A DNA stretch of 64,000 nt from positions 448,001-512,000 of the forward strand of contig CAWELD010000010.1 in assembly GCA_963809895.1 (NCBI GenBank), written 5' to 3'. Below, one piece after another: positions 38,393 to 58,995 of this stretch. This DNA comes from an uncultured Gemmatimonadales bacterium (GTDB lineage: Bacteria > Gemmatimonadota > Gemmatimonadetes > Longimicrobiales > Gaopeijiaceae). The notes under the pieces were generated by a model. The model was given only the letters and a program-made list of their open reading frames with translations. It did not search any database and was not told the origin of the DNA. Every line of letters begins with the position of its first letter. Within the stretch, counting starts at the first letter, position 1. Position numbers and translations under genes: made by a program.

Positions 38393-38874
38393 GTGGCGCA
38401 CCCATGACCTACGTTCGAGGTGCCGACCGTATGATGACGGGTGCTCGCCTCACGCCCGAAGGGCTCCACGTGCTGTTCGCGGATGATCACTCCGCGGTGA
38501 TTCCCCGGGCGGTGCTGGACCTCGGAGGTGCGCCTGTTCGTGTGGGTCTACCCACCCCTTACGCCATCGAGGTGCACCTGGACGACGAGCGGGTCGAAGA
38601 AGTCCCCTGGGATTTCGCACGTCACTTCGCCGACCCGGATCACCGGCGTCGTTCCATCGCTATCGTGGAGCGGAGCGGTAGGGTATTGGGAGAGCGCCTA
38701 CGGGAACTCCGTTCCGCGGCAGGGCTCACTCAGGAAGCGCTTGCGCAAAGGGCAGGAGTGAGTCGCGTCACCATCGCGCGTATTGAGGTGGGGGACCACC
38801 TGCCTCGCTACCAGACCATGGAGGCGCTGGCGGCCGGGCTTGGTGCACCGATCAGTCGCCTGATCGTGGGGTGA
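38389..38874 (+). CDS. XRE-family HTH protein with N-terminal DUF2442-like domain (putative antitoxin)
   Basis: LRELRSAAGLTQEALAQRAGVSRVTIARIE...P HTH; GTGA overlap with DUF4160. The N-domain call is an inference from context. Confidence 0.75.
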   Translation: MSGAPMTYVRGADRMMTGARLTPEGLHVLFADDHSAVIPRAVLDLGGAPVRVGLPTPYAIEVHLDDERVEEVPWDFARHFADPDHRRRSIAIVERSGRVLGERLRELRSAAGLTQEALAQRAGVSRVTIARIEVGDHLPRYQTMEALAAGLGAPISRLIVG

Positions 38875-38896
38875 GGGCCCAGTCCACCCATCCTGA

Positions 38897-39462
38897 TCAC
38901 CCCAGCAACTCGATCCCGAGGGCCCGGGCCGCGTCGGTGACCGCCGGACTCTCCACCGCGAGGACGCCCGGCTGTCCGAAGGTGAGCCGCCCCTCGGTCC
39001 GGGACGTGAACAGGACCCAGGTGTGCCAGTCTCCCCAGAAGCTCGACCACCAGCGGAGTCCGGCGTAGCCCGAGTCCCACAGAGCGCGGGCCATGGGCTG
39101 TGTAGTCGTCCGTGACGGGACGCCGAGCGATCGGGCGCGATCTCCCGGCGCGCCAGAACGGTCGGATCGCAGAGGTCCGCGACCTGGAGACCGGACGTAT
39201 CCAGGTGCACCTTCACCAGTGCCAGTGGGCGGGAGGCGCGCTGAAGATGTGCCGAACCGATTCGACCGCCCCTCCATGGCTGGATGGCTTCGGCGACGGC
39301 GTGCTCAGGGGTCTCGGCAAGGTAGAGAACCGAGGAGAGGTTCCGCGGAAGATCGAAGCGCCCCCGTCCCGAAGGATGAGGCACGAATTCCGGTGAGTAG
39401 CGCTGCCCGTCCGCGACGCCACGCTCCCAGGGGAACACCCTCCAGAGCTCAGCCGTAGGCAC
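38897..39462 (-). pseudogene. RES-domain toxin with frameshift near 39111
   Basis: GRFD, LYLAE...AVAE and ADL in one frame; TQ..AR and GLRWWS in the other. Confidence 0.78.
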
Positions 39463-39818
39463 CCGCCTTCTCCGCCTCGATCGCACCGATGACGTCGGCT
39501 ACGTGACCTCGCCGGATCAGGTACAAGGGCGTACGGTTGTCCAAGATGGACGTTGGCGCCCCTGAGCCACGCGCCGACCGTCTCCGGCTCGATCCAGCGG
39601 CCGAGCATCTCTGCCACGAGGGCCAGTCCGCCCAGGCGGTCGGCGTTGTCGGGATCGGGCGTCTGCCCCTTGCGCCAGCGGGAGACCTGAGAGGCGGACA
39701 CTCCCAGCGCATCCGCCACGGCGCGGTCCGATCCCAGAGCGGCGCGGCACGCGTCCAGATGCAGAGAGGACGGGGTCGGGCTCGTTTCAGAAGAGGCAGG
39801 TTGTGCGAGCGTGGTCAT
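39449..39818 (-). pseudogene. Xre/MbcA/ParS-type antitoxin with frameshift near 39542
   Basis: HTH VADALGVSASQVSRW; WLRGANVHL then DNRTPLYLI..G in the shifted frame; overlaps the RES gene. Confidence 0.8.
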
Positions 39819-39883: not shown

Positions 39884-40453
39884 CTAGCTGGTCCTGAACA
39901 GCGCGGACAGGTCGATGGTGAGCGTTGCGCCCGCCCCGATCGGGGTCCAGCGCAGTGAGTCATCGCCCTCACTCACTACGGGCCTGGTCTTTCCCCCCGC
40001 CAGCTCCCAGACCTCTACTCGTCCCTTGTCGGGATCGACGATCCAGTACTCGGTCACGCCGAACAGCCGGTACCGTTCGAGCTTGAGGCCGTAGTCGCGG
40101 GCTTCTGTCGAGGGAGACAGAATCTCCACTACGAGGTCGGGTGCTCCCTCCACCCCCCGGTCGCTCAGGATGTCGGCTCTGTCCTTTCGGACGAAGACGA
40201 TATCGGGCTCCAGGTAGTCGCCCTCGGCCAGGAGGACATCCAGAGGAGCGGGGAACACCTCTCCAAGACGGTGCTTCTCCACGAAACCGAAGAGCCGTGC
40301 GAACAGTCGTCCTGCGATCCTCTGATGGTGCAGCGACGGCGTCGGTGTCACGGCGAGCTGGTCGTCGATGACCTCGAAGCGCGTGCCGCCCGATTCCGGA
40401 AGACGTGCGAACTCCGAGTAGGTCCAACGCTTGCGCGTGTTCTTGGCCTCCAT
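39884..40453 (-). CDS. Uma2 (DUF820) family endonuclease-like protein
   Basis: HQ, EPDI, GAPDLVVEILSPST, K...Y and GVTEYWIVDP motifs. Confidence 0.92.
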   Translation of the reverse strand: MEAKNTRKRWTYSEFARLPESGGTRFEVIDDQLAVTPTPSLHHQRIAGRLFARLFGFVEKHRLGEVFPAPLDVLLAEGDYLEPDIVFVRKDRADILSDRGVEGAPDLVVEILSPSTEARDYGLKLERYRLFGVTEYWIVDPDKGRVEVWELAGGKTRPVVSEGDDSLRWTPIGAGATLTIDLSALFRTS

Positions 40454-40606
40454 GGCATCTCCCCCCTCCCAGCAAGCTAGCTCTCGGACTGCGGAGGGAA
40501 CAACGATGCGGGGCCCCGTAGGGCGAGTCGATGGCTGGACGGGACGGGTGCGGGGCACACGTCGAGCTACCGGGAAGATGCGGCAGGGCTCTTCCAGGTC
40601 CGGGGC

Positions 40607-43633: not shown

Positions 43634-44119
43634 CTAAGGCTCGTCCTGCAGAGCCCCGTACCTTCCCCCGAAGAAGAGAAGTGGCTCGCGGACGTCCTCG
43701 TCGCGGTCGATCTCTTCCACCTGCCCAACCACGATGAAGTGGTCTCCCGCTTCGTGCATCGCTACCGTGCGGCAGCGAAATGCGGCCATAGCCTCCGCGA
43801 GCCGGATCCCGTCCTTCCATGCCTGCAGCCGGTACGGGGGTGGGTCCTGCCCCCTCCATCCCCCTGCGAAGTACGTTGACAGGTCCTGTTGGGCCCGGGA
43901 GAGGATGTTCACGACGAACGTTCCCTCGCCCTCCATCAGGCTGGCGATCTTCGTGGCCGAGCCGACGCAGAGCAGGATCAACGGCGGATCCAGCGAGACC
44001 GACGTGAACGAGTTGGCGGTCATCGCGTGGGCTTCGCCCTTCATCCGGACGCTGACCACCGTCACGCCCGTGGCGAACAGGCCGAACGAGGATCGCAGAA
44101 TCTCAGGAGGAAGACTCAC
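43634..44119 (-). CDS. Flavin reductase (HpaC-like)
   Basis: FATGVTVV, MTANSFTSVSLDPPL, AGDH and PL.F motifs. Confidence 0.92.
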   Translation of the reverse strand: MSLPPEILRSSFGLFATGVTVVSVRMKGEAHAMTANSFTSVSLDPPLILLCVGSATKIASLMEGEGTFVVNILSRAQQDLSTYFAGGWRGQDPPPYRLQAWKDGIRLAEAMAAFRCRTVAMHEAGDHFIVVGQVEEIDRDEDVREPLLFFGGRYGALQDEP

Positions 44120-44466
44120 TTGCCCGTGACCTCTCCGTTCAATTCCAATACCGCCTCAGCGTTGAAGAACGGAGCCGGCCTCAGCAGCTTGTTCTCCATC
44201 CTGACGATGAGTGGACGAATCTGCGCCAGGTAGGGTGCCCAGGCCGGATCAGCCCGCATGGCTTCACGGCGTGTGTGCCGATCCTCGAAGTCCCGATATC
44301 CCCAGAGATGGACGACCTGATTGAGGGGTCCGACCTCCGTGGAGTAATAGCCTAGCAGGCCCCCGAGATACTTGAGCTGAATGTGCAGAGCTTGCGCCTC
44401 GTACCGACGCATATAGTCGGGCACCTTCCCTGGCCACAGATCGTACGTACGCTGTTCGATGATCAT
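44116..44466 (-). CDS. NIPSNAP family protein
   Basis: EQRTY, TEVGPLNQVVHLW.Y and ENKLL.PAPF motifs. Confidence 0.9.
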   Translation of the reverse strand: MIIEQRTYDLWPGKVPDYMRRYEAQALHIQLKYLGGLLGYYSTEVGPLNQVVHLWGYRDFEDRHTRREAMRADPAWAPYLAQIRPLIVRMENKLLRPAPFFNAEAVLELNGEVTGK

Positions 44467-45113
44467 ACCCGCTCCCGTCCGCCTGCCGGTCGAGGAAGTT
44501 CGAAGAAGGGTGTCTCGTCGGGCCCGCCGAGTTTCACGTCGAAGCGGTACACAGGGGGCGCTCCCTCTTCGGATGCGGAACCATCCCGACGGGCGATCAA
44601 CCGGCTGCGCAGCTCGGTGTCCTCGATGGCCAGCAGTTGTCGGTCAGCTTCGTTCAACGGCTCCCCAGGCATGAAGACCTGGGTGACCAGGGGTCGCATC
44701 ACGCCCGACGCGAGTATGCGGATGCGGAAATGGGGCGGACGGATCCACCCGGGCACCTCCGGGACGGAGTAGCTTCCCGGCTCGATGGTGCGGAAGCGGT
44801 ACCAGCCGTCAGCGTCCGTAGCGACCCTTCCCCACCCCCGGCAAACATGGTCATCCTCTGCGCCGGCCTCCTCTGTCCGCGTCGGAAAGCGCCCCATCGC
44901 ATCGGCTTGCCAAAGCTCCACCAGCGCGTTCTCAATGGGTTCGCCCTCCGCGTCGGTGACCCGACCGGCCAATACGAGTCTCCTCCCCGGGACGGTACTG
45001 CCTTCGGTGAGGTCGGCGTGCTCTGCCACGGTGAACTGGATCGGGAAGAACGGTCCGATCGTGTGATGGGCCGTCGGGCCGGGCCGGGGGGTATGGGCCT
45101 CGTCACGCATCAT
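44463..45113 (-). CDS. pcaG: Protocatechuate 3,4-dioxygenase alpha-subunit-like
   Basis: TIGPFF, VELWQADA.G, GWGR and FRTI.PG; incomplete Fe ligand set as expected for alpha; follows pcaH. Confidence 0.82.
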   Translation of the reverse strand: MMRDEAHTPRPGPTAHHTIGPFFPIQFTVAEHADLTEGSTVPGRRLVLAGRVTDAEGEPIENALVELWQADAMGRFPTRTEEAGAEDDHVCRGWGRVATDADGWYRFRTIEPGSYSVPEVPGWIRPPHFRIRILASGVMRPLVTQVFMPGEPLNEADRQLLAIEDTELRSRLIARRDGSASEEGAPPVYRFDVKLGGPDETPFFELPRPAGGRERV

Positions 45114-45841
45114 CGACGCCCCTCGAACGGCGTCGCCCGTGAGCCGCCCAGCACGATGTCGTGACTGTAGCCGAGCACGCCGTCGGACGTCCGCGCCTCG
45201 GGAACGAAGTCACAGACCAGTCTGTCCCGGGCCGCTGCATCCGGAATGCTGTTCAGCAGGAGATCCAACTCGTTGAGCGGTTCGCCCGGGAAGTAGATCT
45301 GGGTGGTCAGTCGACTCCCGAACGTGCGGCCCCAGATGGAGAGATGTAGATGCGGCGGGCGCCACCAATTCGCGGCACTTCCGGCCCCGTCGCTCGGAAC
45401 TGCATACCCACCGGGCTTGATGGTGCGGAAGGTGAAGCGACCTTCTTCATCAGCGAAGAACCGTCCGAGGCCATGGAAGTTGGGGTCGAGCGGACTGGCC
45501 GAGGGGTCGTTCCGGTGCAGGTATCTGCCAGCAGCGTTCGCTTGCCATAGCTCGATCATGGCGTTCGGCACGGGCCGCCCGCCCGGGTCGAGGATCTGCC
45601 CCGTCATCACGATCAGTTGGCCCATGGCCCGGGGCCGTCCCGGGCTGATGACACTCAGGTCGTTTCCGTGAAGATCCATCGTCACGGGGTCGAAAACCGG
45701 TCCGGCCCGGTCGGCGGAATCGGCAAGCAGCGGCCAGGGAGACAAACTTGGAGTTCTCAGGCCGCTCTTCCGGTATCCTGCGATTACCCGCGGCGGTTGG
45801 GTCGGATCTTCCGTTGTCACTCGCACTCGGTGTTCACTCAT
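45110..45841 (-). CDS. pcaH: Protocatechuate 3,4-dioxygenase beta-subunit-like
   Basis: ELWQANAAGRYLH, DPNF.G.GR, KPGGY and WRPPHLH supply 2 Tyr + 2 His Fe ligands. Confidence 0.88.
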   Translation of the reverse strand: MSEHRVRVTTEDPTQPPRVIAGYRKSGLRTPSLSPWPLLADSADRAGPVFDPVTMDLHGNDLSVISPGRPRAMGQLIVMTGQILDPGGRPVPNAMIELWQANAAGRYLHRNDPSASPLDPNFHGLGRFFADEEGRFTFRTIKPGGYAVPSDGAGSAANWWRPPHLHLSIWGRTFGSRLTTQIYFPGEPLNELDLLLNSIPDAAARDRLVCDFVPEARTSDGVLGYSHDIVLGGSRATPFEGRR

Positions 45842-45862
45842 CTCTGATCCTCTCCTGACAGG

Positions 45863-47050
45863 TCAGGTCACCCAGATCTCTTCAATCGTCATGTCCCCCA
45901 CAGCCTCTTGATCCAGCTCCACCCCGTTTCCGGGGCCTTTGGGCACCAGCATATGCCCGCCCTCCACTATGGGCGGGTTCAGACACAGCGAGTGCTCGAG
46001 CAGGTGCAGTCCGGAGTCGTTGGCCCTGCGGATCGGCTCGCAGGCTGCGGCCAGATGCAGATTCACCGCAGTTCCCACGCCGGACTCGAAGAGGCTGTGT
46101 ATGGCCACCTCCATCCCCCGTCCATCAACGGCCCGCACCGTCTCGTGGAACCCCTGGATGCCCCCCCACAGGAAGACGTCGGCCAGAACGACATCCACGG
46201 CCTGCAGTCGTGCGGCCGGGGCCAGATGCTCGCGCGAAGTCACGAACATGTTCGTCGCCACAGAGGACGCGCTCGCTGACCGGACCGTGCTCAACCCTTC
46301 CAACTCGGGGGCCGGATCCTCTAGGAACTCCAGTTCCAGTTCGTCCAGATCTCCACACAACCCCAGTGCCTCCGCCACGGAGTATCCGGCATTCGGATCG
46401 AAACGCAGTCGGGACTGAGGGCCCAGTGCTGCGCGGAGTTCCCGCATGACGCAGAGATCCCAGCCTGGATCCAGGGCTGCGCTCTTGTACTTGAAGCAGC
46501 GAAATCCACGCTCCTCGGCGTGGGCGCGGGCGCACTCAGCGACGCGATAGGCGTTGGCGCGGTCGGCCATGTGGGCGCGCAGATCCGTGGCGTCCGAAGC
46601 GCTCTCGAAAACCGCGGCTGACAGAGGACACACGACCTCGATGCTCCTCCGCAATGCACCCCCCAGGGCCTGACTGAGGGAGACTCCGTCATGGCGAGCC
46701 ACCAAGTCCCAAGCCGAAGTCTCCAGGGTTGCCAGGGCAGACCAGCCGTTGCGTCCATTTCGATTGTGGAAGGTGGTAGGAGCGAACTCTCTCCGTAGCG
46801 CGTCACGGTCTCGTAGGTCCCGACCCAACCACGTCCGCGCCAGAGCCGCCGTGAGTCGGACTACCTCGGGGTAGCCCGGCCCGTCGCCGATGCCGACCTC
46901 ACCGTTCTCGCTCTCCAGTTCGACGATTGTGCGCACCGTGGAGTCCATCACGTACATGGAACTCACGTAGACGAAGTTCAGCGGGATGCGCACGCGGCGG
47001 ATGCGCACACTTCGGAGCCTCAGCGGAGCCGACACGGATACGGGGTTCAC
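45863..47050 (-). CDS. Enolase-superfamily enzyme, glucarate-dehydratase-like
   Basis: FKYK, DPN, EDP, ATNM and HS match the GlucD motif pattern; GTGA overlap. Confidence 0.8.
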   Translation of the reverse strand: MNPVSVSAPLRLRSVRIRRVRIPLNFVYVSSMYVMDSTVRTIVELESENGEVGIGDGPGYPEVVRLTAALARTWLGRDLRDRDALRREFAPTTFHNRNGRNGWSALATLETSAWDLVARHDGVSLSQALGGALRRSIEVVCPLSAAVFESASDATDLRAHMADRANAYRVAECARAHAEERGFRCFKYKSAALDPGWDLCVMRELRAALGPQSRLRFDPNAGYSVAEALGLCGDLDELELEFLEDPAPELEGLSTVRSASASSVATNMFVTSREHLAPAARLQAVDVVLADVFLWGGIQGFHETVRAVDGRGMEVAIHSLFESGVGTAVNLHLAAACEPIRRANDSGLHLLEHSLCLNPPIVEGGHMLVPKGPGNGVELDQEAVGDMTIEEIWVT

Positions 47051-47811
47051 TTCGGGTCCCGCGCCCGCACCCAGCGGGACAGGGGCACTCCGTCGTCCAG
47101 CAGCTTCATGCGCGCCCTTTCGGCACGCACGCTCTCCTCCGCGAGCGTCACGACCTGCTCGGCGCGAGCTGTGGGCACGACACACACGCCGACATCGTCG
47201 GCCAGCACGAGATCGCCGGGCCGGACATCGACCCCAGACACCGTGACATGCCCGTTCACCTCGACCGACTCCAGGCGGTACTTGCCGGTAAGTGGGCTTA
47301 CCGACCGCGACCAGACCGGGAACCCCATCCTGCGCAACGCGTCGATGTCGCGCACGCCGCCGTCCACTATGGCGCCGACCTCACCCTGCCGAAGACCGAT
47401 CCGTCCCGACACCGCGCCCATGTTGGAGACGGGTTCGGGCACGCTCTGGATGACGAGCACATCGCCAGGTCGCGCCAGGTTGTGGCATTCAACGTCGGCC
47501 AGTCGCGAACTCCTTTCCTCGACGGCTCGCGTGAGCCCGTCAGTCCGGGCCACATTTCGCAACGTGACCGCCGAGCCGACCAGGCGATTACCGGGGCTAC
47601 GTGGCACCAGGACCGAGCCGGAGACCCCTCCTCCGATCTGCAGTCGGTCCAGGATGTCAGACACGGTGGAAGTGAGGTCGTCCAGCGCCTGGAACCGTGC
47701 GACGATGGCGGGTTCGGGGCGGGCCGACCATCGTACGCGGACGCGAGCTTCGTCGATGCGCCCTGTCGGCGTCCATTCCGTAGCCTCGGAGCCAGTCGAC
47801 GTGTCGCTCAT
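47047..47811 (-). CDS. RraA/HMG-CHA aldolase family protein
   Basis: VSD.LD, G.AVT, PGDVLVI, VDGGVRD and VRPGDLVLADDVGV motifs. Confidence 0.88.
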   Translation of the reverse strand: MSDTSTGSEATEWTPTGRIDEARVRVRWSARPEPAIVARFQALDDLTSTVSDILDRLQIGGGVSGSVLVPRSPGNRLVGSAVTLRNVARTDGLTRAVEERSSRLADVECHNLARPGDVLVIQSVPEPVSNMGAVSGRIGLRQGEVGAIVDGGVRDIDALRRMGFPVWSRSVSPLTGKYRLESVEVNGHVTVSGVDVRPGDLVLADDVGVCVVPTARAEQVVTLAEESVRAERARMKLLDDGVPLSRWVRARDPK

Positions 47812-48680
47812 CCCTGAAAGCGCGGCTCCTCGATTCCCCGCACCCCGGGTACGCACGCGAACAGCGCTCCGGCCAGAGGCTCCCGCGCGAGCTGCGCCGG
47901 GGACAGGCGCTGGGAGGCGGTGGTGATGTACATCGTGTCCAGACGCGATCCTCCGAAGGTCACGCAAGTGGGATTCGACACGGGGACCTCCACGACACAG
48001 TCTACCGAGCCGTCCGGCCGATAGCGGACCACACGCGCCCCGGCATACTCGGCGTTCCACAGGCATCCGTCCTCGTCTACGGCGGATCCATCCGGACGGC
48101 CGGGCTGATCCCGCGTGTCGCGAAAGAGCCGCTCGTTCGACATCCGTCCCTCGTCGGAATCGAAGTCATAGGCAAGGATGTGGTGGCGGTACGTATCGGC
48201 GAAGTACATGACAGAGGAATCCGGACTCCATGCCAGGCTATTCGGCACGATGACGTCTTCCAGCATGCGCCGACACGATCCGGCTCCGTCCAGGCGGTAC
48301 AGTGCTCCCACGGGATCTCTACTGACATCGCTCATGGTCCCCGCCCAGAACCTCCCGGCACGGTCGCATCGCCCGTCGTTGAATCGGTTCTGGGGATGGT
48401 CCTGCTCGGGAGACGCGAGCAGGGAGATGTCGCCGGTATCCGGGTCAAGCGTGTATATGCCGGTCTTCATGGCCGCGACGAAACCGCCACTTTCCCGCAA
48501 GGCCACGGAGCCCACCACCTCAGGCAGGCTGGACCGACTCCAGCCCGACCCATCCGCCTCGCAGGACTGCAGCGCCGGGCCGCGGCTGTCGACCCACCAC
48601 AGCCTCCCAGCCCTTCCGTCCCACACTGGGCTCTCACCCAGGCGATCACCGCACCTCACGACCAACTCCACATCGCTCAT
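47808..48680 (-). CDS. SMP-30/gluconolactonase family protein
   Basis: LGESPVW, RFNDG.CD..GR.W.G, PNSLAWSPD and PDG..VD..G motifs. Confidence 0.92.
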   Translation of the reverse strand: MSDVELVVRCGDRLGESPVWDGRAGRLWWVDSRGPALQSCEADGSGWSRSSLPEVVGSVALRESGGFVAAMKTGIYTLDPDTGDISLLASPEQDHPQNRFNDGRCDRAGRFWAGTMSDVSRDPVGALYRLDGAGSCRRMLEDVIVPNSLAWSPDSSVMYFADTYRHHILAYDFDSDEGRMSNERLFRDTRDQPGRPDGSAVDEDGCLWNAEYAGARVVRYRPDGSVDCVVEVPVSNPTCVTFGGSRLDTMYITTASQRLSPAQLAREPLAGALFACVPGVRGIEEPRFQG

Positions 48681-50155
48681 GTCCAAGCGGCGTCGTCGGA
48701 GTGACCCGCCCAACGTGTGGTCACTTTTCGGCTTTGCGTCCAGAACGCCAGGGACCCAGAGCCTGTGATGTCCCCAACACCAAATCTGGAGTGGTACCAT
48801 CCTCCAAAGGAGAACGGCTCGCGCGGCACGGGGACGCCTACGTTCACGCCGACCATTCCAGCGCGCACACGCTCGGTGACGGTGCGGGCCGCACCGCCGT
48901 CATTCGTGAATACCGAAGCCGCATTGCCGAACGGCGATGCGTTTTCCAACGCCACTGCGTCCAGCAGGCGGTCCACTCGCATCACCGCGAGAACGGGGCC
49001 GAAGACCTCATCACGTGATATGCGCATCGCGGGCGTGACGCCATCGATCACCGTCGGCCCTAGCCAGAACCCGCCGCTGCGGTCTCCCATCTTTGGCGAC
49101 CGTCCGTCCACAACGACTCGGGCGCCCTCACGCTCTGCCTCGTCGATGGCGGCCACGATCCGGTCGCGCGCGTGGGCAGAAATCACGGGTCCCATGTGAA
49201 CGCCGGGCTCCATGGCCCGGGCCTGCCTGATCAGCTCGTCGATGAGCTCGTCCGTGCCTGGTAGGGTCACCAACACCGAAGCCGCCATGCAGCGCTGCCC
49301 GGTGCAGCCCGCCATCGCGCCCAGAATAGCAGGCGGCGCGGTAACCGGGTCGGCGTCGGGAAGCAGGATCACATGGTTCTTCGCTCCTCCCAGGGCCAGC
49401 GCCCGTTTCAGGGTGGAGGTCGCTCGTCGGAAGACCGACTGTGCGGCAGGGGTCGAGCCGACGAAGGTGACCGCCACCACATCCGGGTGATCGCAGAGGG
49501 CCTCGACCGCAGATCGATCACCGTTCACCACGTTGAATACACCGGGCGGAAGACCCGCCTCGGCCAGGAGGTCCGCGGTCCGAGCCGCTGTGAGCGGCAC
49601 ACGCTCCGACGGTTTGAGGACCATGGTGTTGCCCAGCACCAAAGCCGTGGGAATGGTCCAGTGGGGCACCATGCAGGGAAAGTTGAACGGTGTGATCGAC
49701 GCCACGACACCCAGTGGCAGGATCTCGGAGCGGCACTCAACCCCGGCGCTGACCCGGTCGATACTTCCGGTCGTCAACTGCGGGAGCGAGCAGGCGAACT
49801 CCGTTTCCTCGATGGCCTTGTACACCTCCGCCTCGGCTTCCTCCTTGGTCTTGCCGTGCTCCTCCCTGATGAGGGAGCCCAGTTCCTCTACGTGCTCTTC
49901 CAGGAGAGTCCGATACCGGTAGAACACCTCGGCGCGCTCCCTTGACGTCAACGCGGACCACGAGGAGAAGGCCTCCCGGGCCACCTGAACGGCACGCCCC
50001 ACAGTGTCTGTAGACCCCAGGGGCACGTGTGCGATGATCTCCCCGGTTGACGGGTTGTGCACATCGGCCCTGGGACCATCGTCGTCTATGGGCACACCTC
50101 CGATCCGGTGCTGAACAAGCCCATATCGAGGGTCGGTCGTCGGTGTCATCGTCAT
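48677..50155 (-). CDS. mmsA: CoA-acylating (methyl)malonate-semialdehyde dehydrogenase
   Basis: ITPFNFP, LKPSE, FVGST, GGAKNH, GQRCMA, EVFGP and GVNVGVPVP motifs. Confidence 0.9.
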   Translation of the reverse strand: MTMTPTTDPRYGLVQHRIGGVPIDDDGPRADVHNPSTGEIIAHVPLGSTDTVGRAVQVAREAFSSWSALTSRERAEVFYRYRTLLEEHVEELGSLIREEHGKTKEEAEAEVYKAIEETEFACSLPQLTTGSIDRVSAGVECRSEILPLGVVASITPFNFPCMVPHWTIPTALVLGNTMVLKPSERVPLTAARTADLLAEAGLPPGVFNVVNGDRSAVEALCDHPDVVAVTFVGSTPAAQSVFRRATSTLKRALALGGAKNHVILLPDADPVTAPPAILGAMAGCTGQRCMAASVLVTLPGTDELIDELIRQARAMEPGVHMGPVISAHARDRIVAAIDEAEREGARVVVDGRSPKMGDRSGGFWLGPTVIDGVTPAMRISRDEVFGPVLAVMRVDRLLDAVALENASPFGNAASVFTNDGGAARTVTERVRAGMVGVNVGVPVPREPFSFGGWYHSRFGVGDITGSGSLAFWTQSRKVTTRWAGHSDDAAWT

Positions 50156-51144
50156 GTGCGGTACACCACGTTTTCAGGCTCGGCACCCCTAGCAAACCGA
50201 GCTAGGTTCTCGGCAATGAACGCCCATCGCCGCTCCAGCATTCCCTTGGTCCAAGCGGACGAATGGGGCGTCATCAGGACGTTCTCCAACTCAGCGAAGG
50301 GATGGCGGGAGGGTGGCGGATTCCGATCGCCTTCGGTGGGATAGCGGTACCAGGCGTCGAGCACCGCGCCGCCGATCAGTCCGGTCCTGAGGGCGTGGAA
50401 GAGGGCATCCTCATCAACCACTTCGCCGCGAGCGACGTTGATCAGCACGCCCGAATCCTTCATGCAAACCAGTTCATGGACGCCAATCAGGCCTAGCGTC
50501 TTGTGCCCGAGGGCCGTAGCCACCACGACGAAGTCGCACTCTCCCAGGAAGTCCTGGAGGGCGTCGAACCCCACGACGCTCTCCGCAAGGCCCTCTTTTC
50601 CGGCCGGCGTTCGTGTGCAGGCCAGCACCCGCGCACCCATGCAACGGGCCCTGCGTGCCACGGCTTGGCCGATACGCCCCAGGCCCACGATTCCGACCGT
50701 CGACTGGCCCAACTCACGCCCGAGGGGACCATCCATGCGGCCGCTCATGCGCCAACTCCCGGCTCGAAACGTCCTCTCTGCCTCTCGAAACGTCGAGCAA
50801 TTCAGCAGCATGGCGAGGACCACGTACTCGGCGATGGCCCCTTCATGACCGTAGGCGTTGGCCACCACGACTCCCGTGGGCAGGTGGTCGATGTCGATGC
50901 CATCCCACCCCGAACCCGCCACTTGGAGAAACTCCAGGTGCGGGGCAGGCGGCATCTCACGCGTATAGCGCAGAGTGAGCACTACCCGGGCCTCGGCCAG
51001 CACCCCGGTCATTTCCTCGATGGGCGTATCGTCCAAGACGCAGCTGAGCCGAGCCCCGGGGAATAGGTCCTTCAGGACCACCCCCTGTTCGCATGCCAGG
51101 GTGCCCAACATCACGACATCCAGAGGTTCAGCCGCCGTCGCCAT
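50152..51144 (-). CDS. D-isomer-specific 2-hydroxyacid dehydrogenase
   Basis: GIVGLGRIG, INVARG, LDAW and TPH motifs. Confidence 0.9.
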   Translation of the reverse strand: MATAAEPLDVVMLGTLACEQGVVLKDLFPGARLSCVLDDTPIEEMTGVLAEARVVLTLRYTREMPPAPHLEFLQVAGSGWDGIDIDHLPTGVVVANAYGHEGAIAEYVVLAMLLNCSTFREAERTFRAGSWRMSGRMDGPLGRELGQSTVGIVGLGRIGQAVARRARCMGARVLACTRTPAGKEGLAESVVGFDALQDFLGECDFVVVATALGHKTLGLIGVHELVCMKDSGVLINVARGEVVDEDALFHALRTGLIGGAVLDAWYRYPTEGDRNPPPSRHPFAELENVLMTPHSSAWTKGMLERRWAFIAENLARFARGAEPENVVYRT

Positions 51145-52630
51145 GTGCCTCGCCGGTTGAGTTCGCCAGGAAATCCCGGATGCGATCCATGTAGACAGTG
51201 CGGTCATGGCTCTTCACCACCGCACCAGCCATGCGAACGGGATCGCCGAAGAAGAAGCGCTCGTAGAGCACCTGCCGCGATGCAAACGCCGACATGGCGG
51301 TATCCCACGCCAGGCGGAAGATGGGAATCCGCTCGTGGGCCTCCGCTCGGGCCGCTTGGAAATACCGCTGTATATCGGCAGCCATGGGGCCGTCTACGTC
51401 GGCTTCGGTGGGCATGGCCACGAGTCCGGACGCCCCCATCTGCCTGATGATCTCCACCATGCGCGGGTACAGGCGCGGGTACAGATTACGCGCGGCATCC
51501 AGTGGGGCCCATGCGGGTCGCATGACACCCCACTCATCCAGCTCGGCGTCCACCTCCGCCGTGCGGAGGAAGGCCTTCATCGTCTCCAGGTTCACCCAGA
51601 TCTCGGCAATCTTCTCCTGGATATGCTGGAATCCTTCGATGGCGATCGTGTCCGCAACCAGCGACGCGACGCCGAGCAGGAACTCGGTCTTCGCAACGTT
51701 CTTAACTACCACCTGGTGCGCCATGTGGACGACCGCGCCGGTACGGGCATACGACGCATTACACCGTTCGGGCTCACGGTACATGAACACGCGCTGCCAC
51801 GGGACCAGGACATCATCGAACGTCACCACCGCGTCCATCTCCTCGAAGCGCGAGGAGAGCGGGTGGTCATAGTGGGAGCGACCGTAGTCCACGCTCTCAC
51901 GGCATAGGAACCTCAGCCCTTCGGTGTTGCTCGGGATGCAGAATGCGTACGAATAGCCCGCATGTTCGGGTGTGTTCTTCAGGAACGTGGAGGGGAATAC
52001 CATGATCTCGTCGGACACGGGCAGAGTGGCCAGCATCCGACATCCCCGGATAACGATGCCCTCCGACGTCTCCTCCTTCACCTTCGCTGCCAGGTAGGGA
52101 TCATCCTGCTCAGCCGCGTGTTTGGCCCGGTTGGCCTGCGGGGAGCTGAGCGTGTGCGTGAGGCAGAGGTCGTTTTCCCGCATGTAACGGTGATACTCGC
52201 GGATATTCTCCCCAAAACGCGGGTCCTTTTCGGCGAGGAAGTCCGCGCCCCCGGCGTACCCCGAGATGGATCGGTTGATGTAGTCGGGCAGGCGGCCCAT
52301 GAGGCCGAAGCTGGCGCTCGCCCACTTCTTCATGGACCGACCGATGCTCTCCAACTCTGGTCCCGTGCGCGGGATCATGAACGAGCGTCCCACCTGGTTC
52401 CCAGTATCGGGAGACTGGAAGAGCGTGGCTTCTGGATCCTCCCACTGCATGTCGTAGAGGCCCGCCAGCGTATGGATGCCGCGCCCGATGGCCGGGTGCT
52501 CGGTCGGATCCTCGACCTGCTTCCCGCCGTACCAGAGGTTGGGCGGATCCTTGCGTAGGCGTTCCAACAGCGCAGAGCCGCTGCGTGCACCCCTCCCGGT
52601 GTCTTGTTCTCCTGCCGCGTCCTGCATCAC
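51128..52630 (-). CDS. hpaB: 4-hydroxyphenylacetate 3-monooxygenase-type oxygenase component
   Basis: MGRLPDY, TH, GCRMLATL, DHPLSSRFEEMDA and RQVLYERFFFGDP; GAGGAG before the start. Substrate not established. Confidence 0.88.
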   Translation of the reverse strand: MMQDAAGEQDTGRGARSGSALLERLRKDPPNLWYGGKQVEDPTEHPAIGRGIHTLAGLYDMQWEDPEATLFQSPDTGNQVGRSFMIPRTGPELESIGRSMKKWASASFGLMGRLPDYINRSISGYAGGADFLAEKDPRFGENIREYHRYMRENDLCLTHTLSSPQANRAKHAAEQDDPYLAAKVKEETSEGIVIRGCRMLATLPVSDEIMVFPSTFLKNTPEHAGYSYAFCIPSNTEGLRFLCRESVDYGRSHYDHPLSSRFEEMDAVVTFDDVLVPWQRVFMYREPERCNASYARTGAVVHMAHQVVVKNVAKTEFLLGVASLVADTIAIEGFQHIQEKIAEIWVNLETMKAFLRTAEVDAELDEWGVMRPAWAPLDAARNLYPRLYPRMVEIIRQMGASGLVAMPTEADVDGPMAADIQRYFQAARAEAHERIPIFRLAWDTAMSAFASRQVLYERFFFGDPVRMAGAVVKSHDRTVYMDRIRDFLANSTGEAHGDGG

Positions 52631-52687: not shown

Positions 52688-52700
52688 ATTGTCTGACAAT
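52688..52700. promoter_or_regulatory. Candidate GntR/FadR operator
   Basis: Perfect palindrome ATTGTC-T-GACAAT in the AT-rich divergent hpaB/gntR intergenic region. Confidence 0.65.
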
Positions 52701-52773
52701 CCTAATGTATGGACATTTGGAGAGGAAGCAAGTATGATTGTTGGTCTGCACCGGGTTCACAGCACGAGGCGTC

Positions 52774-53502
52774 ATGAACCAACCAACGTTGTTTGCCGAC
52801 CGGAACGTCACGATCAGGAGGACGACCACCGTGGATCAGGTGGTCGCCACCGTGTCCGACCTGATTTTCCAGGGGGAGCTTCCGCCAGGCACTCCGCTCA
52901 GGGAGGAGGCTCTGGCCGCGAGCCTGGGCGTCGCGCGGACCACACTTCGTGAAGCGTTGAAGGAGCTGATCCACAAGGGACTGGTGCGGCACCACGCTCA
53001 CCGGGGATCTGCCGTGGTCACTCTGACCCCTGTGGATGTGGCCGACCTTTATCGTGTGCGGAGGCTTCTGGAACTTCCGGCTGTGCGGACCTGTCTTTCA
53101 GGCGAAGATCGCCTGCTCAGGATCGAGCGCCTGGAGGCGATCGTGGAGCGAGCAGAGGCCGCCGCCCGAGGCGGTAGGATCGCCGACCTCGTCCATGCCG
53201 ACCTTGCGTTTCACCGAGAAGTCGTGAGTTGGTTGGGCAGCAGCCGGACCGACCAGTACTTCGACTCGATCCTCAATGAGCTCCGCATCGGGTTCGCCCA
53301 GGTGGAGCGCGAACAGCGGTCCCTGACGGCACAGGCGAGCGTGCACCGCGAAATCCTGGAATGCCTTCAAGCGGGAGACGGCGAGGGATGCGCGCGTGTT
53401 CTCGGAGACCATCTCGCTGACTCCGAAGAAACGGTGGGGGCGGCGGTCGCGCGGTCGGTGAGCGAGGACGCGGGACCCCAGGGATCGGCCGCGACGGCCT
53501 GA
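52774..53502 (+). CDS. GntR-family regulator (FCD domain)
   Basis: LPPGTPLRE..LA..LGVARTTLREAL wHTH; R..LE, D..FH and H..I in the FCD. Confidence 0.92.
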   Translation: MNQPTLFADRNVTIRRTTTVDQVVATVSDLIFQGELPPGTPLREEALAASLGVARTTLREALKELIHKGLVRHHAHRGSAVVTLTPVDVADLYRVRRLLELPAVRTCLSGEDRLLRIERLEAIVERAEAAARGGRIADLVHADLAFHREVVSWLGSSRTDQYFDSILNELRIGFAQVEREQRSLTAQASVHREILECLQAGDGEGCARVLGDHLADSEETVGAAVARSVSEDAGPQGSAATA

Positions 53503-53533: not shown

Positions 53534-54919
53534 ATGAGTCCCACACCTGGGCCAAGCGGCAATCCGTCCACAGCACGGGAGCACTGGAAGAGCAGACTCG
53601 GGTTCATCAGTGCAACGGCGGGACTGTCCATTGGCTTGGGCAACGTCTGGCGATTCCCATACGTGGTCGGAGAGAACGGGGGGGGGGCTTTCCTCCTGGT
53701 GTACCTGCCAGCAGTAATCCTCATTGGTATTCCTCTGTTCACTGCGGAGATTTCACTGGGCCGGAGTGCGCAGCTCACCCCTATCGCTGGGATGCGTAGG
53801 CTCACCGGGCGAGCCTTTGGGTTCTGGAATCTCATCGGATGGCTGGGCGTCATCGCTGCCTTCGGAATCCTGACCTACTACGTGATGCTGCTGGCCTGGA
53901 TCGCTGACTATACGGTGGCGACCGCGACCGGTCGGTTCGTGGGGGCCGGTGCATCCGAGATCTCCGACGCCTTCGAGGTGATGGCGGGAAGTCCCGGACG
54001 CGTACTGGGGTGGATGGTGACGCTCTCGGTGGTGATGGGACTTGTCGTCACCCGTGGCCTCCAGCGCGGCATCGAGATGGCGAGCCGTATCCTCATGCCT
54101 TTGCTGGCGGTCCTCATGGTGGTGCTTGCCGTGGGGGCCATGTCATTGCCTGGGGCAGGAGAGGGCCTGGAGTGGTTCCTCCGTCCCCGGCTCGAAGGGC
54201 TCTCACCCCGGACCGTCCTGACCGCGCTGGGACAGGCGTTCTTCAGCCTGAGCATCGGCATGGCCGCAGCGTTCGTGTTCGGGAGCTATCTCGATCCCGA
54301 GGACAGCGATATTCCGGGTGCAGCCGCGACCGTCGCGGTTTTCGATACATTAGCCGCCATCTGTGCTGGTCTCATCATCTTTCCGGCGGTTTTCTCGCTT
54401 GGGTTGGAGCCCGATTCGGGGCCGCGGCTCATCTTCGTGACCATGACGAACGTGTTCTCCCAGGCGCCCATGGGGCGCTTGGTCGGAACCGCCTTCTTCT
54501 CCCTCCTGCTGCTCGCCGGGGTGACCTCCGGGATGGCTACGGTGGAGGCCGTAACCGCAACGGTTATCGATTCCTTGGGTCTCGACCGAAAGAGAACCGT
54601 CTGGATAGTCCTCGCCTCGGCCTTCTGCTTCGGAATTCCCAGTGTTCTCTCGTTCGGACCGTGGTCGGCAGTACGCCTGTTCGGCATGGACATCTTCGGG
54701 CGTGTCGACTTCTTGTTCGGAGTGGTCTTCCTGGCGCTGGGCGGGCTCCTGATGGCGTTGTACACATCACTTGTTTGGGGCTTCGACGCTTTTGCCAGGG
54801 ATACGAACGTCGGCGCGGGTCGGATCCGTGTGGGTCCCGCCTGGAGGGTGTTCGTGAAGATCTTGGTGCCCCTCTCCATCATCCTCGTCCTCCTCAGTGC
54901 CATCGGAGTCGTATCGTGA
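53534..54919 (+). CDS. Sodium-dependent transporter, NSS/SNF family
   Basis: IGLGNVWRFPY...NGGGAF and GQAFFSLS motifs; ~11 TM. Confidence 0.93.
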   Translation: MSPTPGPSGNPSTAREHWKSRLGFISATAGLSIGLGNVWRFPYVVGENGGGAFLLVYLPAVILIGIPLFTAEISLGRSAQLTPIAGMRRLTGRAFGFWNLIGWLGVIAAFGILTYYVMLLAWIADYTVATATGRFVGAGASEISDAFEVMAGSPGRVLGWMVTLSVVMGLVVTRGLQRGIEMASRILMPLLAVLMVVLAVGAMSLPGAGEGLEWFLRPRLEGLSPRTVLTALGQAFFSLSIGMAAAFVFGSYLDPEDSDIPGAAATVAVFDTLAAICAGLIIFPAVFSLGLEPDSGPRLIFVTMTNVFSQAPMGRLVGTAFFSLLLLAGVTSGMATVEAVTATVIDSLGLDRKRTVWIVLASAFCFGIPSVLSFGPWSAVRLFGMDIFGRVDFLFGVVFLALGGLLMALYTSLVWGFDAFARDTNVGAGRIRVGPAWRVFVKILVPLSIILVLLSAIGVVS

Positions 54920-55839
54920 GCTTTCCTCGCACCGAGTGGATCTGGAAGAACGGCGAACTGATTCCGTGGGAAGACGCCACCATCCACTCACTCTCCCACG
55001 TGGTGCATCACGGCTCGTGCGTCTTCGAGGGTGTGCGCTGTTACGAAACGGCGGAAGGGGCGGCGATCTTTCGCCTGCGTGATCACATGCGTCGCCTGGT
55101 CGGCTCGGCGAAGGTGTACCGGATGGAACTGGCCCACTCGGCCGAGGAACTCGGAGCCGCCTGCGTCGAGCTGGTGCGCAGCAACGGGCTCCGGGCCTGC
55201 TACATCCGGCCTTTCGCCCTCCGAGGTCTCGGATACCCGGGCGTGAACCCGACCGGTACGCCCATCGAGGTGTTCATTGCGTGCTGGCCCTGGGGGACAT
55301 ACCTGGGAGACGAGGCTCTGGAGCGGGGTGTGGATGCCTGTGTGTCCAGTTGGTCGCGGCCCGCGCCCAATACGTTGCCGGTCGGGGCAAAGGCCGCGGG
55401 CAACTATCTGAGTTCGCAACTCATCAAGATGGAGGCCCTCGCCAACGGTTACGACGAGGGCATCGCCCTCTCTCCCGGGGGCTTGGTGAGCGAGGGGAGC
55501 GCGCAGAACCTCTTCCTGGTGCGGGACGGGGCTCTGTTCACGCCCGCCGTCGATGGGACCCTCCTCGCCGGGATCACCCGCCACACCGTGCTCCAGATCA
55601 TCAAAGATCTCGATCTCACGGTTGTGCAGGGCCCCATCCCCCGCGAGGACCTGTACACCGCCGACGAATTGTTCTTCTGCGGGACTGCAGTAGAAGTGAC
55701 ACCGGTGCGGGCCGTGGATGGCGTTCCGATCGGCTCCAGGGAGCCCGGACCCATTACCCGCCGGATCCAGAGTCGCTTCCTGGAGAGCGTCACCGGACGG
55801 CTCCGCGACGTCCACGGATGGCTTACCCGGGTCGAATAG
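54916..55839 (+). CDS. ilvE: Class IV (branched-chain) amino acid aminotransferase
   Basis: VFEG.R.Y, YIRP, KAAGNY, EGSAQNLF, L.GITR and GTAVEVTP; GTGA overlap with the transporter. Confidence 0.9.
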   Translation: MSFPRTEWIWKNGELIPWEDATIHSLSHVVHHGSCVFEGVRCYETAEGAAIFRLRDHMRRLVGSAKVYRMELAHSAEELGAACVELVRSNGLRACYIRPFALRGLGYPGVNPTGTPIEVFIACWPWGTYLGDEALERGVDACVSSWSRPAPNTLPVGAKAAGNYLSSQLIKMEALANGYDEGIALSPGGLVSEGSAQNLFLVRDGALFTPAVDGTLLAGITRHTVLQIIKDLDLTVVQGPIPREDLYTADELFFCGTAVEVTPVRAVDGVPIGSREPGPITRRIQSRFLESVTGRLRDVHGWLTRVE

Positions 55840-56527: not shown

Positions 56528-56863
56528 TCACCTCCTCACACATAGGCAGCCAGCGGGGCGATAGTAGAAGACAGAGCTGATCTGGTCGGGATTGCCTCCG
56601 TCATTGGTGCCGTTGTCGATGAGCTCGATGGCCACTCCGGTGATCAAGGCGTCGACGTCGTCCCCATATGTCGATCGATCCCACGTCGTCTCGTTGGACT
56701 GGAAGAGGATCCGGCGTCCGTCTGGGGAGAAGTGGGGGTACTTGAACTCCACCGTGGTGAGGCGGACCAGCGAGTCCAGGGAGAGGGAGGCCTGGGCGGC
56801 CGCGCCGGGTACGGCCAGGACCACCGCGAGGGCGGAGTGGCGGACGGGAGCGGACCGGATCAT
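56528..56863 (-). pseudogene. Truncated or chimeric TolB/PD40-repeat protein remnant
   Basis: Signal peptide and one PD40 unit (YPHFSPDGRRILFQSN), then unrelated sequence. Confidence 0.5.
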
Positions 56864-57315
56864 CGGTATCTCCGTGCTTATGACAACACCAGGTGTTGGC
56901 AAAGTATCAACAGCACAGCCATGCACAATCAATACCTGGGACGCGACGCCGTGCCACTACCATTGCTAGGTGTGGGCATGACAGAGCCCCGCGACGTGCG
57001 GCCGTCCCCCCCTGACCCGGCGCCTCCTCCGCGGTCCGGCTCGGCTCCCCCGCCGCCGAGGTTTCCGCCCCATGCGCCTGAAGGGACGGTCCGGCACATC
57101 CTCGTCCGTTTCGGCGGCCGCGGGTGACGTCGTCCTCCTGAATGCCCTACCTGTGGATTGAAAGCCTCAACTGAGGGCGCCAACCAGTGGTGCGCCACCA
57201 CGGGAGCCGGCCCGACCTTCCAGGCCGACCATGGACAGATCCAGATCCGCTAACCGACACTCGTCTCACCTTCAGCGGTCGACCTCCGGTCCGCCGCTCA
57301 ATCGGGGACACTGAC

Positions 57316-58195: not shown

Positions 58196-58360
58196 CCCTC
58201 GAAGACGAGCATCCGGGCGGGGTACGGCACCGTCATGCGGTCAATTCGGTGGTCGCCCGGAGGCGTCCCTGACCGGGCCGCGGTGATCCGTCGCCGTCGC
58301 TGCCCGCGACCGTCGGGCGATGCGGCCGGCTCCCCCGGTGCACCCCGGAGGTCGTGGCGT

Positions 58361-58460
58361 CTACTCGTCCCGGAGCACCTCGATCGGATCGACCCGCGCA
58401 GCTCTGCGCGCGGGGAAATAGCACGCCAGCAGCGTGACGGATCCCAGCAGGGCCGCGCAC
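58361..58460 (-). pseudogene. C-terminal fragment of an ADOP-type ABC permease
   Basis: LLACYFPARRAARVDPIEVLRDE*, paralogous to the C-terminus of 32274..34979. Confidence 0.75.
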
Positions 58461-58464
58461 CGAG

Positions 58465-58752
58465 GCTCGAAGCTCACTGCGAACCGCCCGAAACAGAATC
58501 CGAAGTACCGCGCTTGACAGCTCACCGTTTCGCATGAGGTGCGGTCGCAGCCGCTTGGGCACGGACAGCACCCATTGCCGCATCGGTACGACCGGAACGA
58601 CGCTGTCGCTGAGGTGTGCGGCGACCTCGGCCATGCGCCGGTTGGTGCACGAGGGGCAGACGCAGCGTCCCTTGCAGCTGAAGGCCACCAGCCGCTCCTG
58701 GCGGCAGTCGTTGCAGCGCGCCCGAGCGAACCCGAACGCGAGGATCCCGCAG
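58465..58752 (-). mobile_element. IS91-family transposase zinc-binding domain fragment
   Basis: CGILAFGFARARCNDC...VAFSCKGR..CPSC..RRM...A.HL...P.RQWVLSVP; Y2 catalytic domain absent. Confidence 0.85.
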
Positions 58753-58757
58753 GTGGC

Positions 58758-58995
58758 GCACCCCTGGGTGCCGCTCGGCGAAGAGGTCGGCGATGCGTTG
58801 CTCGGTGGTCGACCTCCTGGTCTCCGGCCCACGTCAGCACTCGCAGGGTGACGGCGTCGGGGGATCCCGGAGCGGTGTCGGGGCCGCAGGCGGCGGCGAC
58901 GAGCACGAGCGCAACGGACAGGTACCGGAATCCCAGGGCGGATCGCGGGCGCGTGCGCATCGGACGTGGGATCACGGGATCCGGGCGGTGGGGGA
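58758..58995. repeat. Right copy of the direct repeat: truncated, frameshifted SBP 5' end
   Basis: Encodes MIPRPM...VAAACGPDTAPGSPDAVTLRVLTWAGDQEV from GTG 58975; one extra base near 58810. Confidence 0.9.

Follow-up and report, generated by a model that had tools for sequence, protein, structure and literature searches.

Evidence for a divergent intradiol dioxygenase subfamily in a conserved aromatic operon of Gemmatimonadota, and a possible ortho-cleavage route for homoprotocatechuate

How is a catechol made from 4-hydroxyphenylacetate (4-HPA) broken down when the hydroxylase gene shares an operon with an intradiol, and not an extradiol, dioxygenase? This question is raised by ten genes at positions 43,634 to 52,630 of a 64,000-nucleotide stretch of DNA, here called the window, from an uncultured Gemmatimonadales bacterium (assembly GCA_963809895.1, contig CAWELD010000010.1). 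Homoprotocatechuate is described as undergoing extradiol cleavage (PMC6375179). When 4-substituted catechols are cut ortho, the usual end product is a lactone of which bacteria seldom make use (PMC6449761). We argue that the operon probably directs ortho cleavage of a catechol with a side chain, by a route that closes in carbon-carbon lysis and not in beta-ketoadipate. That the catechol is homoprotocatechuate and the ending an aldol cleavage of a 2-oxo acid, through lower-pathway chemistry that we infer, is a tentative assignment, and the exact order of the third to sixth steps proposed below is doubtful.

Ten intact open reading frames (ORFs), all on the minus strand, fill this part of the window. 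Their order and Pfam families (HpaB_N+HpaB, 2-Hacid_dh, Aldedh, SGL, RraA-like, MR_MLE N+C, Dioxygenase_C twice, NIPSNAP and Flavin_Reduct) agree with the original prediction, made from the letters alone, of ten co-oriented and mostly overlapping genes: eight of the nine junctions overlap (one by 17 nt, seven by 4 nt as ATGA or GTGA), and the remaining one is a 21-nt gap holding AGGAG. ORF starts are approximate, having come from a simple codon-score ORF caller. From hpaB onwards, the genes are as follows.

51128..52630, minus strand: hpaB, Thermus/Gram-positive-type 4-hydroxyphenylacetate 3-monooxygenase oxygenase (TIGR02309, 660 bits); start GTG at 52630 or ATG at 52627
50152..51144, minus strand: D-2-hydroxyacid dehydrogenase of an unnamed subfamily (PF02826/PF00389), under every named cut-off
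48677..50155, minus strand: mmsA, CoA-acylating (methyl)malonate-semialdehyde dehydrogenase, accessory insert (TIGR01722, 502 bits against a cut-off of 448)
47808..48680, minus strand: SMP-30/gluconolactonase-family lactonase (PF08450, 288 bits)
47047..47811, minus strand: RraA-fold putative class II pyruvate aldolase with an atypical metal site (PF03737)
45863..47050, minus strand: enolase-superfamily enzyme of the GlucD-like subgroup, in a clade of its own; probable cycloisomerase/hydratase for the ring-cleavage product, from its motifs and its linkage to pcaHG-like genes
45110..45841, minus strand: pcaH-like beta subunit of a divergent intradiol dioxygenase (iron ligands kept, Trp449 to Val, separate clade)
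44463..45113, minus strand: pcaG-like alpha subunit of the same enzyme (TIGR02423, 132 bits against 126; Arg133 to Ser)
44116..44466, minus strand: NIPSNAP-family protein, candidate isomerase/hydratase (PF07978)
43634..44119, minus strand: HpaC-type flavin reductase (PF01613; best NCBIfam model HpaC_Thermus, 126 bits, below its cut-off of 200)

The gene names first given to these products hold in part. Besides mmsA and pcaG, hpaB passes its NCBIfam cut-off (660 against 480), whereas pcaH (TIGR02422, 220 against 296), RraA (LigK, TIGR02798, 74 against 305) and the enolase (84 against 829 for GlucD, TIGR03247; 85 against 335 for muconate cycloisomerase, TIGR02534) fall below.

The operon is conserved. 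Four other genomes carry nine of its ten genes in unchanged order, following a gntR that is transcribed divergently: the arrangement of gntR and, facing away from it, hpaB, dehydrogenase, lactonase, rraA, a position X, enolase, pcaH, pcaG, NIPSNAP and reductase is whole in G401 (locus L003, a Gemmatimonas metagenome-assembled genome), G147 and G126, and split across two contigs in G402. The cluster proteins of these relatives are 38% to 71% identical to those of the window (dehydrogenase 52-54%, NIPSNAP 55-57% and GntR, at the same position, 38-40%, each in 4/4), a divergence across which selection has maintained the gene set. The dehydrogenase, lactonase and RraA genes are present in all five clusters; mmsA is in none of the four related ones. 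The window genome (G000) is 95% complete, and two of the five cluster genomes carry no stated completeness. The cluster is rare: a close PcaH occurs in 2 of 400 other genomes of the phylum, and among 251 genomes from the family of G147 two have the enolase.

The dioxygenase departs from the usual form. In alignment to 2PCD_M its beta subunit keeps the iron ligands Tyr408, Tyr447, His460 and His462 together with Arg457 and Tyr324, all invariant in 42 sequences, while beta Trp449 is replaced by Val and alpha Arg133 by Ser (numbering verified on 1YKK_A; 2BUX has His there). Trp449 and alpha Arg133 are, as we take it, the contacts of the substrate carboxylate in protocatechuate 3,4-dioxygenase, and the roles of the other residues named are likewise assumed from that enzyme. 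In loci picked by the enolase alone, an unbiased set, Val449, the motif WWRPPH and alpha Ser133 occur in 15/15; loci with at least two of pcaB, pcaC, pcaD and pobA have Trp449 in 11/11 and Arg133 in 10/11, the eleventh alpha chain being badly extracted. Among the remaining 99 sequences, eighty of which were fetched by a neighbouring motif, Trp449 occurs in none and Val in 95, and none of the 84 aligned alpha chains has Arg133. A change of alpha Tyr16 to Phe was dropped as a marker because several canonical enzymes carry it too. When alpha and beta chains were analysed as pairs in a tree (94 pairs, or 90 once duplicates were removed; short chains excluded), 79 fell into one clade with a support of 0.999, separate from 10 canonical pairs.

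A parallel case helps to read the pocket. The pcaH of Novosphingobium SA1 plasmid pSA3, beside a 4-sulfomuconolactone hydrolase gene, has Val449 and Lys133, yet branches with the canonical enzymes, so that its pocket change appears from the tree to have been reached separately; its cluster serves another 4-substituted catechol, so the change is a sign that the substrate has shifted. The type II 4-sulfocatechol pathway (PcaH2G2, PcaB2, 4-sulfomuconolactone hydrolase, maleylacetate reductase) thus shares with our cluster Val449, the loss of Arg133 and perhaps lactonisation followed by lactone hydrolysis, but the SA1 enzyme falls among canonical PcaHG and its three partner families are not in this cluster; clade and partner genes rule out identity with that pathway. 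Furthermore, of 13 proteobacterial genomes with an enolase-linked pair, 12 have in addition a pcaH of the canonical kind, and in 11 a pcaB passes its cut-off, a coexistence which makes a different job most likely for the divergent PcaHG. These enzymes form a distinct, altered subfamily, probably with a task other than protocatechuate cleavage, in line with the earlier suspicion that this PcaHG is no plain protocatechuate enzyme. Compared with protocatechuate 3,4-dioxygenase and the beta-ketoadipate pathway, the two-gene alpha/beta make-up, the four iron ligands, Arg457, Tyr324 and a metal-enolate/elimination-type enzyme after the dioxygenase are alike; the two substitutions, the separate clade and the presence of enolase, SMP-30 lactonase, dehydrogenase and RraA in place of pcaB, pcaC and pcaD are not.

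Does the enolase, then, belong with this dioxygenase or with sugar acids? An alignment of the enolase scanned against GTDB matched at least 80 loci. Among the 80 matches listed, 20 form a close clade (39-48% identity), and pcaH- and pcaG-like genes stand in 15 of these 20 loci against 0 of the 60 distant ones, in carriers from Beta- and Alphaproteobacteria and Gemmatimonadota. Of the five loci that lack them, L010 is a genuine exception, while the other four are short or end where the contig does. This linkage across phyla supports the reading, already proposed for the window, that the enolase goes with the dioxygenase and would belong to an aromatic route. One could instead see a mosaic, in which the divergent PcaHG does no more than cleave protocatechuate in the ordinary way, next to a separate sugar-acid pathway made up of the lactonase, GlucD-like enzyme, aldolase and dehydrogenase: the lower enzymes do resemble sugar-acid families, distant enolase relatives stand beside RraA genes without a dioxygenase (L021, L024, L026, L049 and L078, among the matches listed), and type II enzymes still cleave protocatechuate (PMC5535693). 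Set against the tracking of enolase clade and divergent PcaHG over two phyla, pcaB, pcaC and pcaD not found over cut-off in the five cluster genomes, a cluster with no sugar transporter, and a single operon with a single operator, this is highly improbable.

The enolase itself keeps the GlucD-type motifs KxK, DxN, E, N, D and H invariant, with H-S-L/F/I instead of H-S-N; we assume that these residues map onto their GlucD roles. Its model has a predicted local distance difference test (pLDDT) score of 92.8, and its best folds, 4DYE and 2OQH, are titled merely as putative isomerases. Lactone chemistry is known in the enolase superfamily from galactarolactone cycloisomerase. With that enzyme and with GlucD/GlucDRP the enolase shares KxK, DxN, E, N and the His-Asp pair, and a degenerate partner in relatives resembles the GlucD-GlucDRP pairing; it differs in an identity to GlucD of about 24%, in H-S-L, and in its aromatic rather than sugar-acid context. 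The partner, enolase-like and 200-330 aa long, lies before the enolase in most relatives (separate at L185:8161-8826, with the enolase at L185:8823-9992) or is fused to it (L006, L019). In G126 a model of partner and enolase scored 0.88 against 0.00 for the best control, with contact agreement of at least 97% and partner pLDDT of at least 81, on a scale whose mark is met by 51/78 solved and 2/108 mismatched pairs; this supports binding of the partner to the enolase, a modelled score that may reflect likeness to solved enolase oligomers.

What would the dioxygenase be fed? HpaB best matches 2YYG in the Protein Data Bank (519 bits) and keeps Arg100, Tyr104, His142, Ser197 and Thr198 of the Thermus enzyme, as do 4/4 orthologues; the Ser-Thr pair is lost in 8 of 9 more distant HpaBs checked. 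We take these residues to have the roles they have in the Thermus enzyme, where the pair presumably binds the acetate side chain of 4-HPA, and its retention argues against a bare phenol or pyrogallol as substrate. A Sulfobacillus HpaB, 53% identical to the Thermus enzyme, yields homoprotocatechuate (PMC6375179). Together with the site residues and with paaABCD just downstream of the cluster in 2/4 relatives, this makes conversion of 4-HPA to homoprotocatechuate the default. The HpaB-1 of G617 was set aside as a comparison, being 44% identical, of another clade and with no intradiol gene found. At L227:7375-13541, an HpaB-1 gene (44% identical) stands with a stand-alone LigA subunit, a cupin, a dihydroorotate-dehydrogenase-like gene and a flavin reductase.

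Nor did the genomes yield another enzyme for the HpaB product. The pcaH and pcaG of the operon are the only intradiol-dioxygenase genes in G000; HpaD (TIGR02295) is over cut-off in 0/5 cluster genomes and the LigB family (PF02900) has no member in G000, which leaves the divergent PcaHG as the only ring-cleavage enzyme found for that product. The lack of pcaB, pcaC, pcaD and hpaD-type genes, noted at first for the window, extends to the 95% complete genome, and with pcaB, pcaC and pcaD over cut-off in 0/5 cluster genomes (pcaI, pcaJ and pcaF were not searched for genome-wide) the proposal of a non-beta-ketoadipate lower pathway stands; in the pcaC search the controls G111 and G190 gave 156 and 149 bits against at most 35 in the cluster genomes. 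Fe-ADH/maleylacetate reductase is likewise over cut-off in 0/5, which disfavours routes ending at maleylacetate. The homoprotocatechuate meta-cleavage pathway (HpaBC, HpaD-E-F-G-H-I) is similar in HpaB-1 and flavin reductase, probably in the ring substrate, and in an ending by pyruvate aldolase; it differs from ours in that we have an intradiol enzyme, no extradiol dioxygenase found, and other lower enzymes.

An RraA aldolase must be given a 2-oxo acid, and none arises when homoprotocatechuate is simply cleaved ortho; three routes to one were therefore considered, through a triol, through an aryl-pyruvate side chain and through oxidation of a 2-hydroxy acid. We favour the last, in a GntR-controlled operon for aerobic 4-HPA breakdown. 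HpaB and the flavin reductase, by family and site residues, would make homoprotocatechuate. The divergent PcaHG would cut between the hydroxyls to give 3-carboxymethyl-cis,cis-muconate, its altered pocket taking a longer side chain than a bare carboxylate. The enolase, genetically coupled to the dioxygenase, would replace PcaB on this muconate and, in the most economical version, lactonise the side-chain carboxylate onto C5, giving a delta-lactone which the SMP-30 enzyme (nearest structures regucalcin and 7PLB) could open to 2-hydroxy-4-(carboxymethyl)hex-3-enedioate. The D-2-hydroxyacid dehydrogenase may then oxidise this to a 2-oxo acid homologous to what LigJ acts on, and hydration by the enolase, NIPSNAP or the gntR-adjacent hydratase of relatives would give a homologue of CHA (4-carboxy-4-hydroxy-2-oxoadipate). 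RraA would finally cleave this to pyruvate and 3-oxoglutarate, which would pass to acetoacetate by loss of CO2, and mmsA would be a local add-on. Drawn in this way, the 2-hydroxy-acid route would employ every conserved enzyme and finish in central metabolites.

Among known lower pathways, that of gallate and of protocatechuate 4,5-cleavage, which runs through LigI, LigU and LigJ and ends with LigK/GalC, comes close to our scheme in its logic: a lactone is hydrolysed, a hydration follows, and an aldolase of the RraA fold releases pyruvate. Here the lactonase is of SMP-30 and not amidohydrolase type, the hydratase candidate is an enolase, a dehydrogenase is added, and RraA is far under the LigK cut-off. 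Compared with 3NOJ, RraA keeps Gly101, Arg123 and Asp124, and Asp102 is Ala (Arg in 4/4 orthologues, Gly in 45/53 wider relatives); the ESM Atlas and a representative search name it at family level only. Asp102 is, we presume, a metal ligand of the aldolase. In the HMG/CHA aldolase (HMG being 4-hydroxy-4-methyl-2-oxoglutarate), Gly101, Arg123 and Asp124 are functional residues, Arg123 being essential for the pyruvate enolate (PMC5065237).

Several points weigh against the 2-hydroxy-acid route. Lacking Asp102, RraA is insecure in its aldolase role, and the dehydrogenase has Tyr at the position of the catalytic Glu in solved relatives. Family-level residues are insufficient to fix the substrate of HpaB. 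We know of no enolase precedent for a lactonisation by 1,6-addition, which is a construction of our own, and the window operon lacks the enolase partner of the relatives, a search of G000 for it having turned up the enolase and one other enolase-family protein, full-length and unrelated. HpaB-1 is over cut-off in just 1 of the 13 proteobacterial carriers, so that the divergent PcaHG clade may not share one substrate. The five cluster genomes are kin and not independent samples. Finally, mmsA, joined to both flanking genes by 4-nt overlaps in the window, has no role in this scheme.

It is mmsA that gave the original prediction its ending, in which a triol is cleaved to a pyrone and on to pyruvate and malonate semialdehyde, which MmsA converts to acetyl-CoA. 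HpaB would hydroxylate twice, the divergent PcaHG form a 2-pyrone, the lactonase open it, the enolase hydrate and RraA cleave. This chemistry is precedented: PcaHG converts pyrogallol to 2-pyrone-6-carboxylate, whose further catabolism is termed unclear (PMC6628648), and gallate to 2-pyrone-4,6-dicarboxylate (PMC12481942), and hydroxylases of A. baumannii and P. aeruginosa make triols, unlike E. coli HpaB, which stops at the catechol (PMC10958861, PMC9303722); no report of double hydroxylation by a Thermus-type enzyme was found. The route needs no unusual enolase chemistry, the loss of Arg133 suits a ring without a carboxylate, and a close lactonase and a UbiD decarboxylase flank the nearest divergent PcaHG in L085 and L088. 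It leaves idle, however, the dehydrogenase found in all five clusters, and Ser197/Thr198 and Tyr324 indicate an acidic side chain. As for MmsA, it is over cut-off somewhere in 5/5 cluster genomes, which keeps malonate semialdehyde in play, but mmsA is the sole non-conserved operon gene; its closest copies, 57-58% identical, lie in three relatives (L206-L208), where each has a class III aminotransferase gene as its partner and a creatininase-like gene running divergently, and an mmsA of this type is the likely source of the inserted one, judging by the match. On balance a triol route is unlikely; within it, 3,4,5-trihydroxyphenylacetate, giving pyruvate and 3-oxoglutarate, has a slim chance, and pyrogallol, giving pyruvate and the malonate semialdehyde that MmsA would take, a slighter one.

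The surroundings of the operon bear on the remaining source of a 2-oxo acid, the aryl side chain. They hold elements absent from the original prediction, namely the divergent gntR, its likely operator, and two adjoining genes.

52688..52700, no strand: palindrome ATTGTCTGACAAT, likely GntR operator (predicted), with a core common to relatives
52738..53502, plus strand: GntR (FCD-type) regulator, divergent (PF00392+PF07729)
53534..54919, plus strand: SNF-family sodium/amino-acid symporter (PF00209), not conserved with the cluster
54916..55839, plus strand: ilvE-type aminotransferase, second genome copy (TIGR01122, 373 bits against 246), not conserved with the cluster

With the symporter and ilvE at hand (the paralogue of the latter, 59% identical, is on contig C3 of the genome), the substrate could be a tyrosine-derived aryl 2-hydroxy or 2-oxo acid such as 4-hydroxyphenyl-lactate, -pyruvate or -mandelate: the dehydrogenase would act on the side chain, and after ring cleavage and C3 hydration or lactone opening RraA would free the side chain as pyruvate (or glyoxylate). 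The 2-oxo acid is then supplied directly, dehydrogenase, lactonase, enolase and RraA are all used, and the widened pocket suits a longer chain. Symporter and ilvE are, however, each in 0/4 of the related clusters, in which the symporter's place after gntR is taken by an enoyl-CoA hydratase, and the lactate/pyruvate version ends at maleylacetate, for which no reductase was found in 5/5 genomes. HmgA, not found in the five cluster genomes, would fit such a route, but it is also missing from 5/5 congeners without the cluster and was rejected as a clue, being uninformative. We rate the aryl-acid reading a minority one, with a small chance.

The original reading of the genes as a coherent aromatic operon is supported. 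The palindrome ATTGTCTGACAAT has a single match in the window and 0/100 shuffles match; in 4/4 relatives the gap separating gntR from hpaB contains its 11-bp core, and their genomes hold just 2 to 6 such sites, the pattern being derived from the same sequences in which it was counted. Scans for promoters, terminators and repeats gave chance-level results. Four DNA sequencing runs supplied contigs that tile the operon region, bridging hpaB/dehydrogenase and enolase/pcaH; neither mmsA junction is bridged by any listed contig piece from these runs, and no RNA run was among those listed for the region. The operon has a GC content of 64.8%, the genome one of 69.4%, and values as low occur in 3.7% of 592 nine-kb segments; together with PcaH in 0/5 congeners of the window genome, this fits lateral gain. 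Close to the right-hand limit of the low-GC segment (about 44-58 kb) are an ORF for an IS91-type transposase zinc-binding domain (58233-59069) and a short PD40-containing ORF (56528-56932). On the other side, a helix-turn-helix ORF (39213-39818) beside a RES-like ORF (38698-39486), by eye presumably a toxin-antitoxin-like pair, is followed by a Uma2-like nuclease ORF (39884-40558).

Outside the cluster, the divergent PcaHG keeps varied company. Its neighbours in Betaproteobacteria are a MarR regulator, two enoyl-CoA hydratases, a family III CoA-transferase, a CoA ligase, an HMG-CoA lyase homologue and a MetE-like gene, and proteobacterial loci, mostly beta (L001, L002, L004, L006, L008, L011, L014, L019, L147), run pcaHG-MarR-hydratases-CoA transferase-CoA ligase, with HMG-CoA-lyase-like and MetE-like (PRK06520) genes, the enolase partner and the enolase. 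This looks like a CoA-dependent ending for a similar ring-cleavage product. A comparable ending could be drawn for the window: homoprotocatechuate would be cleaved, the enolase would give an ordinary 4-substituted muconolactone, the lactonase a tertiary alcohol, and an HMG-CoA-lyase-type step encoded elsewhere acetyl-CoA and maleylacetate, with RraA and the dehydrogenase taking the remainder. Besides those betaproteobacterial clusters, the hydratase adjoining gntR in relatives, one HMGL-like gene in G000 and a parallel with the sulfocatechol route (PMC5535693) speak for it; as the cluster holds no CoA enzymes, no maleylacetate reductase was found in the five genomes and the roles of RraA and dehydrogenase stay vague, we consider it improbable.

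Further contexts are seen. In L098, L104, L127, L130 and L144 a subclade of the divergent PcaHG adjoins a two-subunit Fe-S fumarase/tartrate-dehydratase-like hydratase, a GST, a CoA-transferase and tricarboxylate-binding proteins, with no enolase seen, which may be a case of non-orthologous replacement. A DHDPS-family enzyme stands near the dioxygenase in L093, and TPP enzymes in Acetobacteraceae. In the nearest divergent PcaHG outside the cluster (L083, L085, L088) a close SMP-30 lactonase (52-63%) is convergent on pcaG, with a UbiD-family decarboxylase next in L085 and L088. A third type, at L233:3533-5808 and L234:284-3201, is a pcaH-like gene without adjacent pcaG, accompanied by a LigXa-type Rieske oxygenase, MarR, an amidohydrolase, and an SDR (L233) or cupin (L234). 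As annotated, hydration and carbon-carbon lysis recur around the divergent PcaHG, by differing enzymes.

Has any of this been described? The original prediction did not recognise the gene set, and full-text searches found no account of it, in coverage that excludes most subscription journals and could miss older biochemistry; one bioinformatic paper offers, as a guess, that 3,4-dihydroxyphenylacetate is handled by a COG3485 dioxygenase, within another set of genes (PMC6449761). All parts come from known families, and there is precedent for aldol lysis after ring cleavage; the dioxygenase subfamily at the core is new. A more speculative extension, which we hold possible and no more, is that the divergent PcaHG are widespread, hitherto overlooked and dedicated 3,4-dioxygenases for homoprotocatechuate or side-chain catechols which, with the enolase, would open an ortho route that avoids the 4-substituted muconolactone dead end by vinylogous lactonisation, oxidation and RraA splitting, phyla differing in the carbon-carbon lyase. 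If a triol route were true, it would supply the missing catabolism of 2-pyrone-6-carboxylate, relevant to syringol and lignin conversion (PMC6628648). The core has cultured carriers in two Roseomonas (L017/L018), and a Paracoccus plasmid holds the divergent PcaHG (L194), which makes the pathway testable. An ortho route for homoprotocatechuate, if true, would be a new branch of aromatic catabolism with a new enolase-superfamily reaction, and would correct many JGI and NCBI records that label these genes protocatechuate 3,4-dioxygenase and glucarate dehydratase.

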